A stretch of DNA of 10,506 nt from IMG/VR virus record IMGVR_UViG_2529292883_000007, positions 1 through 10,506 of that record, one strand, 5' to 3'. Each line of letters starts with the position of its first letter. Position 1 is the stretch's first letter. The stretch comes from a virus (taxonomy: Duplodnaviria > Heunggongvirae > Uroviricota > Caudoviricetes). The notes under the pieces were generated by a model. It searched no databases. It saw nothing but the letters and a program-made list of their open reading frames with translations, and was not told where the DNA came from. Made by a program: the position numbers and the translations under genes. Of this stretch, positions 2,658-10,506 are shown piece after piece.

Positions 2658-2849
2658 ATGAGTACAGCCCTTTCTCCGATAGTTTCAGAATTCGAAACTA
2701 CCGAACAAGAAAACAGTTACAACGAATGGTTGCGCGCTAAAGTCGCGTCAAGCTTTGCAGATCATCGCCCCGCAATACCGCATGACGAGGTGATGGCTGA
2801 AATGGAAAATCTTATTGCTCAAATTGCTGCGACTAGCGGGAGTGTGTAA
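2658..2849 (+). CDS. PaaA-type small antitoxin (ParE-associated)
   Basis: 63-aa ORF with a GAGGAG Shine-Dalgarno 7 nt upstream. Its stop codon overlaps the start of the ParE reading frame (TAATG at 2847-2851). The sequence (SPIVSEFETTEQENSYNEWLRAKVA...) resembles PaaA-type antitoxins from memory. Confidence 0.6.
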   Translation: MSTALSPIVSEFETTEQENSYNEWLRAKVASSFADHRPAIPHDEVMAEMENLIAQIAATSGSV

Positions 2850-3138
2850 TGCTACCCATTTTATGGCTACCATCTGCTCGCGATGATTTGCGTCAGATCG
2901 TAGCCTATATTGCCAAGGAAAATGTTCCACAGCAGCTCGTAGACTAAAAATACGTATTGAAACGTCTGTTTTAGCCCTCTCAGAGCATCCATATCTATAT
3001 CCGCCAAGTGATAGAGTATCCGGTTTGCGGGAAATTGTAGCTCACCCTAATTATATCGTTTTGTACCGAGTAGCAGCTTCAAGCATTGAAATTGTAAATA
3101 TTGTGCATACCCGCAGACAGTTTCCCTTCCCTGCCTGA
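2849..3138 (+). pseudogene. parE: ParE-family toxin gene disrupted by a frameshift
   Basis: The frame from ATG 2849 encodes a ParE-like N-terminus (MLPILWLPSARDDLRQIVAYIAKENVP...) and stops at TAA 2945-2947. A different frame, open from 2887 to the TGA at 3136-3138, encodes a ParE-like C-terminus (...AARRLKIRIETSVLALSEHPYLYPPSDRVSGLREIVAHPNYIVLYRVAASSIEIVNIVHTRRQFP). The switch point is near 2927-2935. Confidence 0.6.
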
Positions 3139-3156
3139 ACCGAACGATTTTCACAC

Positions 3157-3180
3157 TCCCTCATACGAGGGATTTTTTTT
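3157..3180 (+). terminator. Intrinsic terminator after the repressor-TA operon
   Basis: Stem TCCCTC (3157-3162) / GAGGGA (3167-3172) with loop ATAC, followed by 8 T (3173-3180). Confidence 0.6.
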
Positions 3181-3191
3181 GCCAAAAAACA

Positions 3192-3235
3192 ACAATTAAA
3201 AACTGTTGACACCAAACAGTTTTTAATTGTAGATT
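3192..3235 (+). promoter_or_regulatory. Operator O2 overlapping a rightward early promoter (pL analogue)
   Basis: ACAATTAAAAACTGT (3192-3206), spacer tgacaccaa, ACAGTTTTTAATTGT (3216-3230); perfect 15-bp arms, one base different from O1. A consensus -35 TTGACA (3204-3209) straddles the left arm and spacer; a -10 candidate TAGATT lies at 3230-3235 but the spacing is long, so the exact -10 is uncertain. Confidence 0.55.
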
Positions 3236-3414
3236 GTTTTCACCAGCCCACCCCGTCCCACAGAATGCAGGGCAAAACTTCGAGTTACCAGGCAGTGGTC
3301 AGGGGTTAAGTAGCCAGCCCGAGGCGTATGAACATGACGGCAGGGATCAAATTTAATAACTATGCAGCAGGTTTTTGTTCCGCTACCCCGGCGTTAAGGG
3401 GAAATGAGGTCAAC

Positions 3415-3571: not shown

Positions 3572-3718
3572 ATGAACGAAACAGAATTAAAACACGTTAT
3601 CGCTCTGCTTCTGGAGGATGCAAAACGCCTCCAGCAACTGGAACCAAATGCAGGCACTGAAGCCCGCATCTGGCTGGCATTGTACGCTATTGAGTCAGGT
3701 CGTGATGATGAAGGTTAA
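3572..3718 (+). CDS. ydfB: YdfB-like small protein
   Basis: 48-aa ORF (MNETELKHVIALLLEDAKRLQQLEPNAGTEARIWLALYAIESGRDDEG), absent from the ORF track because it is under 60 aa. AGGTGA Shine-Dalgarno 5 nt upstream; the ATG is 1 nt after the ydfA-like stop. Confidence 0.45.
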   Translation: MNETELKHVIALLLEDAKRLQQLEPNAGTEARIWLALYAIESGRDDEG

Positions 3719-3999
3719 GCATCATCTAAGTTTTTTACATAGCGCCCATTAGATTCGGTAACAAGAACTCCGGGATTTTTCTTAACTTTTGAGGCCACTG
3801 ATTCAGCAAGGTTAGCAACAGATTCTTTGTCTTCATTCTTGCTTGAATATGTATATTCGGCATTAGGAAGTCGGTAGGTGTTCCCTGAAGAGGTTGTAAT
3901 CGTTCTGGAGAATCCCTTTGCTTCCATTCGTTCATGAAGCTTATCGTAATCAGCGGAACTGGAATCGCGAAGTTCGATCCTGACTGTAAATTTTGCCAT
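3715..3999 (-). CDS. Hypothetical 94-aa protein, convergent to the early operon
   Basis: ATG at 3999-3997 preceded by a strong GGAGGATAAA Shine-Dalgarno (the longer track ORF starts inside this SD, so the 94-aa form is preferred). Its stop overlaps the ydfB-like stop by 4 bp (TTAA at 3715-3718). Non-repetitive, protein-like composition; family not recognised. Confidence 0.6.
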   Translation of the reverse strand: MAKFTVRIELRDSSSADYDKLHERMEAKGFSRTITTSSGNTYRLPNAEYTYSSKNEDKESVANLAESVASKVKKNPGVLVTESNGRYVKNLDDA

Positions 4000-4335
4000 T
4001 TTATCCTCCATTAAGGGCTGAATTAAAAATGGAGACCAACACGCTGCTACGTGTGGTCGTGCGCCGGACACGGATAAGAATCCGGCACTGACAGTTTACT
4101 GAAAGGATATTTCCCTGAAAAGTCAGGGCATAACACGAAAGCGTACGGCGAAGGCCTTCACCTATGAGGTTTGTCGTTAAATTTCTTCGACCGTGCGCTT
4201 CCGGTTGTGGCACTCCGCGAAATGGCGCGGTGGTAAGTATGGCGGGGTTATTCCTTCCCCCGTTGAGGACACCGGGTTGTCAGGTTGACCATACACTTAA
4301 GTGACAACCCCGCTGCAACGCCCTCTGTTATCAAT

Positions 4336-4393
4336 TTTCTGGTGACGTTTGGCGGTATCAGTTTTACTCCGTGACTGCTCTGCCGCCCTTTTT
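4336..4393 (+). ncRNA. dicF: DicF small RNA (ftsZ-targeting prophage sRNA) with its 3' terminator hairpin
   Basis: TTTCTGGTGACGTTTGGCGGTATCAGTTTTACTCCGTGACTGCTCTGCCGCCC followed by TTTTT matches my recollection of the DicF sequence. It ends in a GGCGG...CCGCC hairpin plus a U-run, and lies downstream of ydfA/ydfB-like genes as in Qin. Confidence 0.7.
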
Positions 4394-4801: not shown

Positions 4802-5035
4802 ATGAAAATAGAAACTATCAGCTACATCAAGAAAAACGCAGCCTCACTGGACCTGGCTGAACCAATTCTTGTCACGCAGAATGGTGTTCCTGCATACGTA
4901 ATTGAATCCTATGAGCAGCAACAGGAACGCGAGAATGCTATTGCGTTACTGAAACTTCTCACTATTTCAGAAAGTGACAGGTCTGAAGGCCGCGTGTTTT
5001 CAAAAGAACAGTTGCTGGATAGCTTTAACAAGTAA
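4802..5035 (+). CDS. Phd/YefM-family antitoxin
   Basis: 77-aa ORF (MKIETISYIKKNAASLDLAEPILVTQNGVPAYVIESYEQQQERENAIALLKLL...) with the Phd/YefM pattern. The toxin ORF follows 8 nt after its stop. Confidence 0.7.
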   Translation: MKIETISYIKKNAASLDLAEPILVTQNGVPAYVIESYEQQQERENAIALLKLLTISESDRSEGRVFSKEQLLDSFNK

Positions 5036-5043
5036 GGTTGACG

Positions 5044-5364
5044 ATGCAGATTGAATACACGCTTACCGCCAGAACAAGCCTTGAGCAAATTGCCGACCAT
5101 CTCCGGAGTAACGACATTGACCCACTCCCTGTAATAGAAGAAATTCTTGAACGATTTGAAACAAGAGTTACGGCATTCCCGTCCGGATGCCAGTTATGCC
5201 CGGAGTTGCTCAAACTTGGCGTGGCGAAATATAGAGAATGCAACACACCAGAAGGTTACAGAGTGCTGTACTCTGTAGAAGGGGATGTTATCACTGCACA
5301 CGCGGTTCTTTCCCAACGTCAGGATATTAAACAGTTACTGTTCAGGCGACTGATTAGAGCTTAG
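5044..5364 (+). CDS. RelE/ParE-superfamily toxin (putative)
   Basis: 106-aa ORF from ATG 5044 (the track begins at an in-frame TTG at 5038), with AAGG 6 nt upstream. ParE/RelE-like pattern (conserved N-terminal helix, and YRVLYSVEGDVITAHAVL near the C-terminus). Lies directly downstream of the Phd/YefM antitoxin. Confidence 0.55.
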   Translation: MQIEYTLTARTSLEQIADHLRSNDIDPLPVIEEILERFETRVTAFPSGCQLCPELLKLGVAKYRECNTPEGYRVLYSVEGDVITAHAVLSQRQDIKQLLFRRLIRA

Positions 5365-5455: not shown

Positions 5456-5510
5456 TTGTCCGCACCTCATAAAACGGGTGCCGGGCGTGGAAACCCGATG
5501 TTCACTAACG

Positions 5511-5543
5511 CGCATAACCGCGCTCAGGCGGTTTTTTTATGCG
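5511..5543 (+). terminator. Terminator/attenuator hairpin within the rha leader
   Basis: Inner stem CCGC (5518-5521) / GCGG (5528-5531) with loop GCTCAG, followed by 7 T (5532-5538). An outer stem CGCATAA (5511-5517) / TTATGCG (5537-5543) could alternatively sequester part of the U-run. It sits about 55-80 nt downstream of the predicted start. Confidence 0.45.
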
Positions 5544-5707
5544 TAATGCACAGCCACATTCAGATTATGGTGGGACGTGCAGGGCAGCCGCAAGGCTGGC
5601 CGGGTTCGTTAGTGACCGGTATTTCCACCCCTGTACGTCTCACCACCCTTATGGTCGTGGAAAACCTTGGTGGTGAGTTAATCAAATTCACTAACGAGGC
5701 TGCTATC

Positions 5708-6262
5708 ATGGCTACTATCCCTACCCTTTCTCACCCTGACGTAACCATCAAAAATGGTCGCGCTGTCACTACGTCTGTTGCGGTTGCAGAGTTCTTCCGC
5801 AAAATGCACAAGGACGTTTTGCGCAAAATTGAAACGCTAGAATGCTCTGAAGATTTTAACGAGCGCAATTTTACGCCCGTTACCTACACCGACGCCAAAG
5901 GCGAAAAACGACCAATGTACCAAATCACCAAAAACGGCTTCGTTTTCCTGGTGATGGGGTTCACCGGCAAAAAAGCCGCAGCTTTCAAGGAAGCCTACAT
6001 CGCTGAATTCGATCGCATGGAGGCAGAGTTGTACCAGCTTAATACCACTACCACAGACAAAATAATTCCTGGTGATGGTCGCACTCTCGTTGTTCACTTC
6101 GACGAACGCGGCAATATCAAATTCACCGAAACCGTTCCTGACGGCGCTCTCGTCTGTACTCTGGATACTTTCCGCTTTTATCTGGAGAAGCAGGGGTGGA
6201 CTCTTGTAAACAGGAGCGCAATTAAAAATATGACCGTCGAGCAGTTGCTGAGTATTAAATAG
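5708..6262 (+). CDS. rha: Rha-family phage regulatory protein
   Basis: 184-aa ORF from ATG 5708 with a GAGG Shine-Dalgarno 8 nt upstream. The N-terminus (KNGRAVTTSVAVAEFFRKMHKDVLRKIETL...YQITKNGFVFLVMGFTGKKAAAFKEAYIAEFDRME) matches the Rha domain pattern. The track's longer 268-aa ORF starts at a TTG inside the promoter -10 and is not preferred. Confidence 0.7.
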   Translation: MATIPTLSHPDVTIKNGRAVTTSVAVAEFFRKMHKDVLRKIETLECSEDFNERNFTPVTYTDAKGEKRPMYQITKNGFVFLVMGFTGKKAAAFKEAYIAEFDRMEAELYQLNTTTTDKIIPGDGRTLVVHFDERGNIKFTETVPDGALVCTLDTFRFYLEKQGWTLVNRSAIKNMTVEQLLSIK

Positions 6263-6308
6263 TTTTCTGGAATTTTCTTAATGCGACAAATTTATTAAGG
6301 AGATAATT

Positions 6309-6530
6309 ATGATTGCTCATCACTTCGGAACTGATGATATTCCTCGTCAGTGCGTGACTCCCGGTGATTATGTTATTCATAAAGGAAGAACATATATTGC
6401 TTCGGTAAACAATATTAAAAAACACCGGCTCTATATTCGTGATTTTTCCACACAACACTGTATTAATGAAACCATGATTAAAGTCTTCCTTGATCGTGAT
6501 GGTTTACCTGTAAAGGCGGAGTCGTGGTGA
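6309..6530 (+). CDS. Small protein, possibly KilR-like (Rac cell-division inhibitor family)
   Basis: 73-aa ORF with a strong AAGGAG Shine-Dalgarno 6 nt upstream, in a locally AT-rich segment. The KilR assignment rests on its length, its position next to the recE-like gene and a tentative recollection of the KilR sequence. Confidence 0.5.
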
Positions 6531-6647
6531 GCTGTAATAAAATAACTACCCCAATACGACATTCAGTTTAATAAATACATCAGATTCGATTCTTATATGC
6601 CAGCAATGGCAGTGATTTGTTCACCCCTAAATCTGTAATGAGGTTTA

Positions 6648-9086
6648 TTGATGAGCACGAATAAAGAACTGTTTGCGCTATATTGCGAAGCTAAAAATGA
6701 CAAGGTCAGAAAGCGTCTCGGTATTAAAGGTGGCTTTTTCTGGATCGAAGCCAAAAAACTTTCCGTTGCAGTTTCCCGCTGTATTGCCGCTATGGACGAT
6801 GCTGGCTACGACGAAGATGATTTCAAAAAAACAGTTCGCGTCCATTTGCCTGTTGTAAATGACCTGCCACCTGAAGGCGTATTTGATACTGATTTCTGTA
6901 ACCGTTACGAAAAAGGTGGAGAAGATGGCATCACAATGATGCCGGTACCGTCCAGCAACAGCGATGAAAACAGTAACGCCGCTAATACTAACGTCAACGG
7001 CGAAGACATGACTGAGATTGAGGAGAATATGCTTCTGCCGGTTTCAGGTCAGCTTCTGCCTGTTAGATGGCTGGCACAGCACGGCAGCGAAAAACCTGTC
7101 ACGCATGTTTCACGGGATGAACTGCGGGCATTACATAACGCACAGGAAGAAAAACTTCCCGCCGTTACCGCTCTGGCCATCTCAAATAAAGCAGTGCAAC
7201 TCGAACCGCTGGAGATTCGGGATTTGTACAAACTGGTGCGGGACACTGACAAAGTTTTTCCCGCCCCCGTAAATTCAGACCTGGGACTGATGACTTCCTT
7301 CATCGAAGCATACCTGGACGCTGACTACACCAATCGCGGTCTGCTTACAAAAGAGTGGATGAAAGGAAATCATGTTTCGCGAATCAGCCGCACACCATCC
7401 GGCGCTAACGCTGGCGGCGGTATTCTTACCGATCGCGGCGAAGGTTTTGTACACGATGATGCATCACTGGCGCGCGACGTAGCCACTGGCGTGCTGGCCC
7501 GTTCAATGGACGTGGACATTTATAACCTTCATCCGGCACACGCTAAACGCGTCGAGGAAATTATCGCTGAAAATAAACCGCCCTTTTCTGTTTTCTTCAG
7601 CAAATTCATCACCATGCCGGGCCACAAGGATTTCTCCCGTGCCATCGTGGTTGCCTCCGTGAAAGAAGCACCAGTTGGTATAGAGGCTATGCCCCACCGT
7701 GTCACCGAATACCTGAATAAGGTGCTGACTGAAACCGATCATGCCAACCCTGATCCGGAAATCGTGGATATTGCCTGCGGTCGCTCCTCTGCCCCGATGC
7801 CGCAGCGTGTAACGGAAAAAGAAAAACATGATGAAGAAAAACCGCAACCATCTGGCGCAATGGCAGATGAACAGGCAACGGCTGAAACAGTGGAACCGGA
7901 TGCAACTGAACATCATCCGGACACGCAGCCGGTGGATGCTCAGCCACAGGTGAATTCTGTTGATGCGAAATATCAGAAACTGCGGGCAGAACTCCATGAA
8001 GCCAGGAAAAACATTTCGCCTAAAAATCCTGTCGACGCAAACAAATTACTGGCCGCCTCTCGCGGAGAATTTGTTGAAGGGATTAGTGACCCGAATGATC
8101 CGAAATGGGTTAAGGGGCACCAGACTCGCGAGTCTTCGAACCAGAATCAACCAGAAGTGGAACAAACCAGGTCAGAATCGGGACAAAATAGCCAGGATGC
8201 ACACCAAAATGAACCAAAAACGATACATCCGGAGCCAGCAGCGCAACATGCACAGAAAAATCCCTGTAATGTTTGTGGGGAAACTGGCGGGGGCACATGC
8301 CCTGACTGTGCCTCAGTAATGGGTGACGCAACTTACCATGAGACATTCTGCGAGGAAGATTCAGATGAATCTCAGGAAAAAGCTCCGGAGGAGATGGAAA
8401 ACCCTGAACATCCGCATCCGGAAAATACTGACAGCAATCAGCATAACAATAGCGGTGATAAAACTGACAGGACGACAAATTCCTTAATTAATATGTACGG
8501 TTATAAGAAAAGAACATCCACCAGCAGAATGTGTCACCATCTGATGATCGACCTTGAAACAATGGGAAAAAATCCTGATTCCCCGATTATCTCAATAGGT
8601 GCAATATTTTTCGATCCGCAAACCGGAGAGATGGGACCAGAATTTAATAAAACCATCGATCTGGAAACTGCTGGCGGAGTCATTGATCGGGACGCGATCA
8701 AGTGGTGGCTGAAGCAATCACGCGAAGCGCAATCTGCCATTCTGACCGATGAAATCCCGTTAGATGATGCACTGCTGCAATTGCGGGAATTTATCGCCGA
8801 AAACTCCGGTGAATTGTTTGTTCAGGTCTGGGGAAATGGAGCCAACTTCGACAACGTGATTTTGCGCCGTTCATATGAACGGCAGGGTATCCCCTGCCCG
8901 TGGCGCTACTACAACGATCGCGATGTACGCACAATCATTGAACTGGGAAAATCCATAGACTTCGATGCCAGGACGCCTATTCAATTCGAAGGCATACGCC
9001 ACAATGCGCTGGATGATGCCCGTCACCAGGCGAAATACGTTTCAGCAATCTGGCAAAAACTGATCCCGAATCAGTCTGATTTTTAA
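6648..9086 (+). CDS. Large prophage exonuclease: RecE-like N-terminal/central region fused to a C-terminal DEDDh (DnaQ/RNase T-like) 3'-5' exonuclease domain
   Basis: 812-aa ORF with GAGG 8 nt upstream. The C-terminal domain has the three DEDDh motifs: Exo I MIDLETMG, Exo [14 protein letters not shown], Exo [15 protein letters not shown] CxxC-x7-CxxC motif ([15 protein letters not shown]) and an acidic, Pro/Gln/Glu-rich low-complexity segment lie between the N-terminal region and the nuclease domain. It occupies the exo/recE position upstream of xis-int. Confidence 0.75.
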
Positions 9087-9149
9087 TGTTCAACCCCAGT
9101 CGTCGCCCCCAGCTATAGTGGCGGCGACCATGATTAGCGAACGATACTC

Positions 9150-9398
9150 ATGGCAAGACTTATTCTGCTCACTGAGTGGGCAAAAGAGGAATTCAGCGAT
9201 CCGGTCCCTACTCCGGGCACGTTAAGTAAATACGCTAAAGCCGGAATGATATTTCCTCTCCCCAAAAAAGTTGGAAGACACTGGCGAGTGGATCCGCGAG
9301 CTCGCTTTGTCGGAATGGTAAACAAGCCGGAGGTGATCGCCACAGATCATCCTGCTTTAAAGAGGATACTGGAAGATGGCACGCCCGCGAAAATATAA
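9150..9398 (+). CDS. xis: Excisionase (Xis-like)
   Basis: 82-aa ORF immediately upstream of int, with its 3' end overlapping the int start by 23 nt as in lambda xis/int. The sequence (LTEWAKEEF...MIFPLPKKVGRHWRVDP) resembles excisionase-family proteins. Confidence 0.65.
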   Translation: MARLILLTEWAKEEFSDPVPTPGTLSKYAKAGMIFPLPKKVGRHWRVDPRARFVGMVNKPEVIATDHPALKRILEDGTPAKI

Positions 9399-10506
9399 AA
9401 CCGCTGTTCCGGGATTATCTCCGTATTTTGACAAAAGAAATAACAAAGTTTACTGGCGTTACAGGCATCCCATCACAGGTAAAAATCATGGACTCGGCAG
9501 TATTGACCAGAAACTGGCGGAAACCATTGCAGCAGAAGCGAACAGCCGTCTTGCCAGACAACAAATGGAGCAAATGCTCAGTCTGCAGGAGAAAATTATT
9601 AGTGATACCGGCGGCGCATCAACCGTTTCCATTTTTCTGAATAATTACAGAAAAATTCAACAGGAAAGATATGAGAACGGAGAGATCAAACTCAGCACGC
9701 TGAAGCAAAAAGCGGCTCCTCTCAGGGTGTTTGATGAACGTTTTGGAGCCAGGCCGCTAGATGCCATAACCGTAAAAGATGTGGTATCAGTGCTGGAAGA
9801 ATACAAGGCAAAGGGACATAACAGAATGGGACAAATTTTCAGGAAGGTCTTGATCGATGTTTTCCGGGAGGCTCAACAAACGGGTGATGTCCCGCCAGGC
9901 TTTAACCCGGCTGAATCGGCAAAAAAACCGCAAGTGCGGATATCAAGACAGCGACTGACTTTTGATGAGTGGATGATGATTTATAACGCAGCGGAAAAGG
10001 ATGGTTACTTTTTACAGCGCGGCATGCTGCTGGCTCTGATGACGGGCCAGCGTCTTTCGGATATTTGCAAAATGCAGTTTTCGGATATCCGGGATGGTTA
10101 CCTTCATGTCGAACAGCAAAAAACAGGAGCCCGGATAGCCATTCCTCTGGCTCTGCGTTGCGACAAATTAAATCGTACCCTGGGTGACGTGGTGTCATCC
10201 TGTCGTGATTACATCCTTAGTCCGTGGTTATTGCACCATCATCACGCTAAGGGGATGGGTAAGCGCGGCGGGATGGTTAAACCAGCAACGTTAACAGTCG
10301 CATTTAAAAAAGCCCGGGATTCTGTGGATTACAACTGGCGTGCTAATGGCACGCCACCCTCTTTCCATGAGCAAAGATCTTTATCAGAACGATTGTTCAG
10401 AGAACAGGGAATTGATACCAAAATTTTGCTGGGTCATTCGAATCAAAAAATGACCGATATTTACAACGATGCACGCGGTAAGGAGTGGAAAAAACTGGTC
10501 ATTTGA
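9376..10506 (+). CDS. int: Lambda-family tyrosine integrase
   Basis: 376-aa ORF with clear similarity to lambda Int as I recall it: RLTFDEWMMIYNAAEKDGYF / MTGQRLSDICKMQFSDIRDGYLHVEQQKTGARIAIPLAL and the C-terminal PPSFHEQRSLSERLF...LLGHSNQKMTDIYNDARGKEWKKL, including the catalytic R...HxxR...Y arrangement. The stop is at the window edge, so the att site should lie just downstream of the window. Confidence 0.9.
   Translation: MARPRKYKTAVPGLSPYFDKRNNKVYWRYRHPITGKNHGLGSIDQKLAETIAAEANSRLARQQMEQMLSLQEKIISDTGGASTVSIFLNNYRKIQQERYENGEIKLSTLKQKAAPLRVFDERFGARPLDAITVKDVVSVLEEYKAKGHNRMGQIFRKVLIDVFREAQQTGDVPPGFNPAESAKKPQVRISRQRLTFDEWMMIYNAAEKDGYFLQRGMLLALMTGQRLSDICKMQFSDIRDGYLHVEQQKTGARIAIPLALRCDKLNRTLGDVVSSCRDYILSPWLLHHHHAKGMGKRGGMVKPATLTVAFKKARDSVDYNWRANGTPPSFHEQRSLSERLFREQGIDTKILLGHSNQKMTDIYNDARGKEWKKLVI

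Follow-up and report, generated by a model that had tools for sequence, protein, structure and literature searches.

The exo slot is the place of the recombination exonuclease in lambda and Rac. RecE of Rac has a PD-(D/E)XK 5'-3' nuclease domain at residues 564-866, preceded by a 600-residue N-terminal part without assigned function (PMC11611040). Zheng et al. 2025 listed a 'Tritos' lambdoid type, which carries a nuclease, lacks SAP, SSB and anti-RecBCD genes and is rich in Chi, and they mention DnaQ-type nuclease genes near int (PMC12315714). EcD (HREX), an E. coli homologue of DexA, has been reported by Kang et al. (NAR 2025) to digest T4 DNA and to protect cells (PMC12153337). Here, we analyze a gene within a stretch of 10,506 nucleotides that we call the window. 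The host prophage is a defective remnant of roughly 13 kb at ompW from which the late genes are missing, and its attachment site adjoins ompW just outside the window. The original prediction held that the gene encodes a RecE-like N-terminal part and a DEDDh 3'-5' nuclease domain with no annealase gene beside it. The protein is best read as a three-part mosaic, in which a RecE-type N-terminal module is followed by a zinc-ribbon and acidic linker segment and then by a DexA-like DEDDh domain (Table 1).

The 811-codon frame is intact. It is given as ORF 6648-9086 (+), starting at TTG 6648, in the program-made ORF list, but ATG 6651 is the likelier start because a GAGG Shine-Dalgarno sequence lies at 6640-6643. 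An identical protein is encoded in E. coli GCA_910664855.1. Compared with the O103:H2 homologue, dN/dS is 0.22 in the DEDDh domain and 0.27 overall, with a range of 0.10-0.38 across all segments, and these ratios show the gene to be under purifying selection. We also considered whether the C-terminal domain might be made on its own from an internal start and rejected this, as no Shine-Dalgarno sequence is evident upstream of 8544. Some databases carry 180-aa versions that start at MIDLETMG, and most of these short entries are contig-end partials.

Table 1 Positions in the window of the mosaic exonuclease gene, its parts and its neighbors.
Feature	Position	Strand	Basis or remark
kilR homologue, directly upstream, same operon	6309..6530	+	PF27398 in source-contig annotation
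Mosaic exonuclease gene, 811 codons and stop	6651..9086	+	ORF listing, translation
RecE-type N-terminal module, aa 1 to about 460	6651..8030	+	Pfam, NCBIfam, BLASTP
PF06630 match inside N-terminal module	about 6813-7211	+	Pfam
Central segment	8034..8466	+	Also present in canonical RecE and in DEDDh exonucleases of either N-terminal class
Conserved 24-letter protein motif in central segment	8046-8117	+	Sequence
CxxC...CxxC zinc-ribbon-like motif in central segment	8265-8309	+	Sequence
Chi octamer GCTGGTGG	8518..8525	- (template strand)	Sequence match
DEDDh domain, PF16473, DexA-like	8535..9053	+	Pfam, AF2 model, Foldseek
Exo I, MIDLETMG, D634 and E636	8544-8567	+	Translation
Exo II, D734	8829-8864	+	Translation
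Exo III, H784 and D789	9000-9032	+	Translation
Excisionase (xis), directly downstream	9150..9398	+	ORF listing, Pfam
Lambda-type integrase	9376..10506	+	Pfam; source-contig annotation

The three nuclease motifs quoted in the original prediction are all present, and the C-terminal domain (aa 630-802) matches PF16473 (Rv2179c-like, DEDDh) over profile positions 1-177 of 177 with an E value of 4.3e-66 and 222 bits against a cutoff of 27; the family carries the name of an exoribonuclease. The D-E-D-H-D pentad is complete, aligns to the DexA residues and is kept in 105/108 homologues that cover Exo I. One sister lineage, a cluster of 649 sequences, has E replaced by K in Exo I, and a second, represented by a 99%-identical protein, has D replaced by N in Exo II; catalysis is therefore not retained in every lineage. 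An AlphaFold2 (AF2) model of the domain has a pLDDT of 85.4 and a pTM of 0.83, and in Foldseek it places T4 DexA (8kel/8ken) on top (TM 0.72, E 2e-11), followed by RNase T, Cas2-DnaQ and Orn. T4 DexA is also the sole sequence match in the PDB. The C-terminal domain is a DEDDh domain with a predicted RNase H-like DnaQ fold, not a PD-(D/E)XK nuclease. The original prediction had named a PD-(D/E)XK fold as one result that would speak against it; the predicted fold is DnaQ-like with DexA as the best match, and neither PF12684 nor another PD-(D/E)XK nuclease domain was matched by Pfam in the exonuclease.

The resemblance of the N-terminal part to RecE, which the original prediction had suggested, holds up in direct comparison. 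BLASTP aligns aa 59-614 with residues 50-591 of Rac RecE at 70% identity, and similarity to Rac RecE is absent past its residue 591. The Pfam scan of the protein gives PF06630 at an E value of 2.7e-29. The NCBIfam RecE equivalog NF007259 scores 974 bits, below its cutoff of 1269, and covers model positions 1-602 of 877 only. At aa 1-400 the protein is 98-100% identical to another canonical RecE allele, P0125, which has recT downstream. The central segment also has acidic low-complexity linkers. AlphaFold2 on aa 1-410 with an alignment of 24 homologues gave no confident fold (pLDDT 31, pTM 0.19), the alignment being too shallow (homologues 86-99% identical). The K-12 DLP12 pseudogene exoD was considered as a relative and rejected, its translation being a lambda-Exo-type C-terminus.

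The surroundings of the gene bear out the predicted lack of a recT- or bet-like gene before xis: xis begins after a gap of 63 nt, which leaves no space for an annealase gene, and the Pfam scans are negative. In the main window ORFs from repressor to int, Pfam finds HTH, PaaA2, DUF1391, GhoS-like, Phd/ParE and Ash/Rha, together with Exc, integrase, YdaS, YdaT and DUF977, and none of the RecT, Erf, Rad52, Sak4, SSB and Gam families. A recT or bet gene elsewhere in the prophage, or just outside the interval, had been raised as a point to check; none is present in the 22-kb source locus, and annealase, SSB and anti-RecBCD genes are absent from it on either side and from the remnant prophage. Upstream, the kilR region is 82% identical in nucleotides to that of Rac; the KilR call is that of the source-contig annotation, the Pfam scan of window ORFs giving no match at 6309-6530. 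A crude consensus scan found no sigma-70-like promoter ahead of the exonuclease gene, although with so coarse a method the gene may still be expressed in the lysogen, and a scan for promoters and terminators around the gene gave nothing beyond shuffle expectation, a weak negative.

Over bases 6300-7950 the window is 99-100% identical to a prophage with canonical recE-recT (L047), in which recT directly follows recE; over bases 8800-10506 it shows 98-100% identity to a prophage at the ompW site that carries the DEDDh gene. Judged by these identities, this copy is a recent recombinant of two prophages, and the crossover zone of both parents is the central segment. Homologous recombination within this common segment joined the recE-recT parent to the ompW/Qin-type parent. 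The Chi octamer falls in the codons of a TSTSR linker, nine codons before the first Met of the DEDDh domain. It is found in the same place in 5/5 DEDDh-type genes examined and is missing from Rac recE. The window holds two Chi sites against 0.21 expected, a number reached in 3/200 shuffles; it belongs to a ~13-kb remnant without late genes and is not a genome-wide count. Phage Tritos has 11 against 1.6 expected, with 0/100 shuffles reaching 11.

The original prediction implied that such a nuclease is unusual in the exo slot, for which there is no support. DEDDh-domain DNA is present in 4060/5426 complete E. coli genomes (75%), compared with 1736/5426 for DNA of the canonical RecE nuclease domain, and by these counts the DEDDh gene is the commonest exo-slot occupant in E. 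coli lambdoid prophages. A gene of this architecture is carried by 649 complete genomes, with a nucleotide identity of about 85%, the DEDDh gene is also found in complete phage genomes, and the fused form lies directly before xis-int in six loci, the window included. K-12 has a relative in ydfE (Qin), an IS2-truncated pseudogene. RefSeq names the protein 'exonuclease' or '3'-5' exonuclease', and the 'Tritos' type is published. The gene and its architecture, like the nuclease-only type of phage, have thus been catalogued before and are not novel. A literature search on the RecE-DEDDh fusion, on ydfE/Qin and on anti-phage roles of prophage DEDDh proteins found nothing on this protein.

We regard the gene as encoding, with somewhat better than even confidence, a DexA-like 3'-5' DNA exonuclease of the early-left (pL) operon that acts outside single-strand-annealing recombination. 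After T4 DexA, the enzyme would be a Mg2+-dependent 3'-5' exonuclease on DNA 3' ends, made on derepression of the early-left operon. Since an enzyme of 3'-5' polarity removes 3' tails and does not produce them, an annealase would serve no purpose for it. 'Tritos'-type phages may leave strand exchange to host RecBCD-Chi/RecA, with the nuclease trimming or degrading linear DNA ends; host DNA, competitor DNA and phage intermediates are candidate targets. The gene is intact in a ~13-kb remnant, which is no less in keeping with a benefit to the host than with a role in the lytic cycle.

A rival reading is a prophage defense or superinfection-exclusion nuclease of the HREX/EcD kind, which would degrade incoming phage DNA, perhaps with 5hmC, from 3' ends and spare the host. 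We consider this possible though unlikely. The activity and protection reported for EcD speak for it, as does the membership of an EcD-like protein in PF16473 at about 37% identity to this domain; so does the persistence of an intact gene under purifying selection in cryptic prophages (this remnant and Qin-type ones) and in three-quarters of E. coli genomes. The EcD-like sequence is a 189-aa protein that we infer to be HAK9828821.1: it was recovered by the EcD forward cloning primer and the A78 position alone, whereas with the reverse cloning primer the sole match was an unrelated viral contig, and the C-terminus that this primer encodes differs from the viral-contig copies. This protein does not match EcD at the residues linked to its phenotype. 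At the position of D90, the Asp by which DexA forms tetramers, EcD has Ala and this protein has Asp (the second D of PLDDA), as in 84/120 homologues against 13/120 with Ala. Of the Trp and Asp of DexA proposed to read 5hmC, W152, which EcD keeps, is replaced by Tyr, and the alignment of this protein with the D169 region is too poor to call. Moreover, the gene lies deep within a repressed early-left operon with no promoter of its own recognizable in the crude consensus scan, and PADLOC returned just a weak generic match to Cas-associated DEDDh proteins (E 9.5e-5) without assigning a defense system. The EcD-like gene, for its part, belongs to a P2-like early operon within a prophage, and defense may therefore not be its native role.

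An RNA-directed 3'-5' exoribonuclease of the Rv2179c, RNase T or Orn kind, which at induction would act on RNA of the host or the phage, or on small oligonucleotides, is improbable in our view. The Pfam family takes its name from the M. tuberculosis exoribonuclease Rv2179c, and significant structural matches include RNase T, oligoribonuclease and REXO2; the RNase T and Orn matches do not discriminate, however, because both enzymes also cut DNA. Rv2179c is missing among the best 50 structural matches, the DNA exonuclease T4 DexA is both the best structural match and the sole PDB sequence match, and the domain is fused to the N-terminal portion of an enzyme that works on DNA ends. Among the defense, anti-defense and RNA-directed functions that had been proposed, the last is the least likely because the nearest characterized relatives, T4 DexA and EcD, are DNA exonucleases.

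We give even less credence to the view that the gene is a functionless hybrid, an open-frame pseudogene left by recombination of decaying prophages. The prophage is a short remnant, the gene is demonstrably a recent recombinant, close relatives carry catalytic-site substitutions and the K-12 relative ydfE is a truncated pseudogene. Nevertheless, the whole 811-codon frame is open behind a good Shine-Dalgarno sequence, every catalytic residue is present, dN/dS is low in each segment, and both the spread of the architecture over complete genomes and the DEDDh genes of complete phage genomes count against decay. A RecET-type recombination exonuclease with an annealase encoded elsewhere is highly improbable and is contradicted by domain and context: the N-terminal 600 aa are RecE-like and some databases label relatives 'exodeoxyribonuclease VIII', but the PD-(D/E)XK domain is absent, the DEDDh fold implies the opposite polarity, the NCBIfam RecE score is below cutoff, and an annealase is lacking in the window, the remnant prophage and the whole Tritos genome. 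The view that this is not classical Red/RecET recombination thus survives, since resection and annealing of that type cannot be the mode of a DEDDh protein without a RecT/Bet partner.

If the role of this gene were established, it would explain what the exo slot holds in the majority of lambdoid prophages of E. coli, those of the Qin type among them, and would show how DNA ends are handled in Chi-rich phages that have no annealase. It would also open a way into the N-terminal part of RecE, which pairs with two unrelated nucleases in nature. For annotation, the label 'exodeoxyribonuclease VIII' on many records points to the wrong pathway as well as to the wrong polarity. The finding is minor as a discovery. 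A wider reading, which we offer tentatively and consider rather unlikely, is that the RecE- and YdfE-type modules with the zinc-ribbon linker form a nuclease-agnostic adaptor. Such an adaptor would bring either nuclease, 5'-3' PD-(D/E)XK or 3'-5' DEDDh, to DNA ends or to a host factor, and the conserved Chi at the joint of linker and domain would promote natural shuffling of nuclease cassettes. The DEDDh version would then be a one-protein end-processing function that may work together with RecBCD-Chi of the host in lambdoid phages lacking an annealase or, alternatively, may disarm ssDNA-based host defenses.

Compared with Rac RecE, the gene has the same position, following kilR and upstream of xis-int in a Rac-like early-left operon, and both proteins have a zinc ribbon and an acidic linker. 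The C-terminal PF12684 domain of RecE is replaced here by the DEDDh domain, and recT, ralR and rcbA of Rac are missing. T4 DexA, a 3'-5' DNA exonuclease, shares the aligned DEDDh residues, although identity to the C-terminal domain is only 20-29%, and DexA, which belongs to a virulent phage, is a stand-alone protein of 227 aa with additional loops and an extended C-terminus. EcD is likewise stand-alone, and its gene, like ours, lies in a temperate-phage early operon; that of the EcD-like protein is between cox and gpA, beside a Dam methylase, and is not lambdoid. Related as well are the stand-alone PF16473 exonucleases of 180-190 aa from enterobacterial prophages, which are 55-86% identical to the C-terminal domain and have the same pentad but lack the N-terminal extension. 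In the two lambdoid contexts examined, a 189-aa Salmonella version and a 183-aa E. coli version are the last early-left gene before xis-int, the Salmonella example in an ST64B/LLS-like operon (yfdP-yfdQ-...-DndB-like).

A further counterpart is the exonuclease of phage Tritos, a complete and viable phage with no annotated annealase anywhere in its genome, in which SSB and anti-RecBCD genes are also lacking. In Tritos and Qin the N-terminal module is of the YdfE type, with 99% identity to the pseudogene ydfE of K-12, and not of the RecE type found here, and the BLASTP alignment with the Tritos protein, 54% overall, begins at aa 287. From about aa 465 to the C-terminus the two exonucleases are nevertheless alike, with near-identical DEDDh domains. 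Both genes occupy the same place before xis-int and carry the same linker Chi, and the window shares with the 'Tritos' type an early-left operon in which a nuclease stands without SAP, SSB or anti-RecBCD genes.

The likely start of the exonuclease gene is ATG 6651, with GAGG eight bases upstream, which gives a protein of 811 aa. Its C-terminal domain matches Pfam PF16473 (Rv2179c-like, DEDDh; aa 630–802, E 4e-66), the three motifs quoted in the original prediction are all found (residues D634, E636, D734, H784 and D789), and the sole PDB sequence match is T4 DexA. An AlphaFold2 model of aa 614–811 (pLDDT 85.4) retrieved DexA as the top structure (TM 0.72, E 2e-11), followed by RNase T, a Cas2 DnaQ domain and oligoribonucleases, and no PD-(D/E)XK fold was found in this search. 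The C-terminal fold is therefore DEDDh and not PD-(D/E)XK, as had been proposed. The RecE resemblance of the N-terminal part, suggested in the original prediction, is borne out by a PF06630 (Exonuc_VIII) match at aa 56–188 and by 70% identity of aa 59–614 to Rac RecE 50–591 (BLASTP). Past aa 614 (RecE 591) BLASTP finds no similarity to Rac RecE, and the NCBIfam RecE equivalog aligns only at model positions 1–602 of 877, with a score below its cutoff. According to a review, the RecE nuclease domain comprises residues 564–866, the remainder being ‘of unknown function’ (PMC11611040). A role as a 5'-3' resection enzyme of the RecE type is excluded for the window protein.

The window protein is also without an annealase partner. 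xis begins 63 nt past its stop codon, and the RecT, Erf, Rad52, Sak4, SSB, Gam and Abc2 families are absent from the main window ORFs (Pfam) and from the 10 kb to either side of it in the source genome (precomputed Pfam table), in agreement with the earlier reading that no recT/bet-like gene lies between the exonuclease gene and xis. At every lambdoid locus opened (O103:H2 12009, phages Tritos and 606R7, two further E. coli chromosomes, and prophages of Salmonella and E. coli in which the gene is a stand-alone 183–189-aa version) the DEDDh gene stands last among the early-left genes, ahead of xis–int, and an annealase is lacking. In a study of 325 lambdoid genomes, Zheng, Casjens, Davidson, Amundsen and Smith (Genome Res 2025, PMC12315714) reported that some Rec modules contain DnaQ-like 3'-5' nucleases, and that DnaQ-type nuclease genes, not counted by them as Rec-module genes, occur sporadically ‘very near int’. 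Their Table 1 includes a ‘Tritos’ functional type that is positive for nuclease, negative for SAP, SSB and anti-RecBCD, and has many Chi sites. We find that Tritos carries the DEDDh gene (PF16473, E 2e-67) and 11 Chi sites (1.6 expected), with no annealase annotated among its 56 genes or detected by Pfam in the hypothetical proteins scanned. We predict that the window protein is a DexA-like 3'-5' DNA exonuclease made on pL derepression, and strand exchange in phages of this nuclease-only type would be left to host RecBCD–Chi/RecA.

The main rival, which we consider improbable, is that the protein serves in defence as EcD (the ‘HREX’ defence exonuclease) does. Kang et al. (NAR 2025, PMC12153337) solved the DexA structure and reported that EcD, an E. 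coli homologue, digests T4 DNA, spares unmodified DNA and protects cells. A 189-aa PF16473 protein recovered from their EcD primers (matched through the forward primer and the A78 position) is 37% identical to the window DEDDh domain, but the residues that the paper ties to EcD behaviour are not matched in the window exonuclease (D90 equivalent, Asp versus Ala; W152 equivalent, Tyr). The EcD-like gene (L027 6404–6970, an IMG/VR contig; also L006, L011, L021, L022 and L024) lies in a P2-like prophage early operon, in the order cox-like, DUF4761, EcD-like exonuclease, Dam methylase, DUF4406, gpA, which suggests that the defence enzyme published as ‘bacterial’ is an early gene of a temperate phage. 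RefSeq names the window gene ‘exonuclease’, ‘3'-5' exonuclease’ or ‘3'-5' exoribonuclease domain-containing protein’; RNA-directed activity is the less probable alternative, given that its nearest relatives act on DNA.

Comparison with the O103:H2 homologue gives a dN/dS of 0.10–0.25 in the N-terminal part, 0.38 in the linker and 0.22 in the DEDDh domain, and the catalytic pentad is intact in 105 of 108 homologues covering Exo I. With the frame intact and under selection, the gene is unlikely to be a relic; the evidence shows an early-left gene that is modular, conserved and selected. Catalytic substitutions occur in some close relatives (proteins P0007 and P0001): Exo I E to K (MIDLKTMG) in the O103:H2 12009 copy (L001 7991–10408) and its 649-member cluster, and Exo II D to N (NGANFNNVIL) in a 180-aa protein 99% identical to the window DEDDh domain. 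These may be inactivated or repurposed variants.

Features of the window and closest parents of its segments.
Feature	Position	Strand	Remarks
ydaW (DUF977) homologue, ydaU-like replication gene, ydaT and ydaS homologues		-	
Early-left operon	~2230 to window end	+	DicA/RacR-like repressor, PaaA2-like antitoxin, DUF1391 gene, DicF sRNA, Phd/ParE pair, isrK and C4 RNAs with Ash/Rha gene, kilR, exonuclease ORF, xis, int
PaaA2-like antitoxin gene	2658-2849	+	follows DicA-like repressor, as in paaR2-paaA2-parE2 modules
118-aa ORF inside operon	3715-4071	-	Pfam GhoS, borderline (E 3e-4, 21.1 bits; cutoff 21)
DicF sRNA	4337-4388	+	Rfam, 76.7 bits
Phd/ParE pair, complete	4802-5364		separate from PaaA2-like gene
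isrK	5462-5538	+	Rfam, 65.9 bits
C4 antisense RNA	5563-5650	+	Rfam, 80.3 bits
Exonuclease ORF	6648-9086	+	ORF listing
DEDDh motifs	8544-8567, 8829-8864, 9000-9032		
Chi octamer GCTGGTGG	8518-8525	- (template strand)	in TSTSR linker codons
Segment, Rac-site parent	6300-7950		recE-recT prophage (L047), 99-100% nt identity
Segment, third source	8000-8800		neither parent, 46-94% nt identity
Segment, ompW-site parent	8800-10506		prophage with YdfE-type DEDDh exonuclease (L045), 98-100% nt identity

The window copy is a recent recombinant. Over aa 1–400 it is 98–100% identical to a canonical RecE (P0125, 874 aa, PF12684 domain), whose gene lies in the Rac-site prophage and is followed by recT, lar, a DUF1187 gene, xis and int. 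Homology to Rac recE ends at 8466, and this, together with the parent identity map, indicates that the two nuclease cassettes are exchanged in nature via recombination in a central segment common to RecE-type and YdfE-type exonucleases and true RecE, which contains a conserved 24-residue motif, a CxxC...CxxC motif and acidic linkers. P0156 (E. coli, 929 aa) joins the RecE N-terminal region (PF06630) directly to a RecT domain (PF03837), perhaps through loss of the nuclease domain and fusion of recE to recT, and is a further sign of modularity at the locus. The linker Chi stands exactly nine codons ahead of the first Met of the DEDDh domain and recurs at the same relative position in all five DEDDh-type genes examined (window, L001, L042, L045 and L046); Rac recE has none. 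In Tritos it is oriented like 9 of the 11 Chi sites of the genome. A recombination hotspot where the domains join is one possible reading of it, a simple consequence of the encoded peptide another.

The window corresponds to the early region of an E. coli lambdoid prophage that is Rac/Qin-like. E. coli assembly GCA_910664855.1 encodes the identical exonuclease protein in a short prophage remnant adjoining ompW, with a chromosomal flank 99.5% identical to other E. coli. In the source genome (L031 1–3350 and 13900–22436 inspected) the prophage spans only ~13 kb, with hok/gef and a few cargo genes at one end and int, at ompW, at the other, and late genes are absent from it; a second island a few kb past ompW–yciA carries a serine recombinase, IS fragments and a ParE/RelB pair. 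The isrK and C4 RNAs overlap the 5' part of mechanical ORF 5456–6262, the source of the Pfam ‘Ash’ match, so the real Rha-family gene probably starts further downstream (compare P1/P7-type immI regions). The PaaA2-like gene looks like an orphan antitoxin, because no ParE-like ORF of at least 60 aa comes after it (2850–3330, + strand). GhoS is an antitoxin endoribonuclease family; no obvious GhoT-like partner was seen for the 118-aa ORF.

Among 5,426 complete E. coli genomes, the full-length gene (≥80% covered, ~85% nt identity) occurs in 649, DNA of the DEDDh domain alone in 4,060 (8,043 places, up to 7 per genome) and Rac RecE nuclease-domain DNA in 1,736. The gene is ordinary and abundant and has been catalogued before, and the nuclease-only type without an annealase has been published; the remaining interest lies in the gene's function, the interchangeability of its N-terminal module and the Chi conserved where the domains join. 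By N-terminal region, the DEDDh exonucleases form at least two classes: the RecE type of the window gene, and a YdfE type in which residues 1–254 match the K-12 Qin pseudogene ydfE (L044 4079–4999), truncated by IS2, with 99% identity. The ydfE of K-12 MG1655 is the first 254 codons of a Tritos-type DEDDh exonuclease, and K-12 is therefore without an enzyme present in ~75% of complete E. coli genomes.
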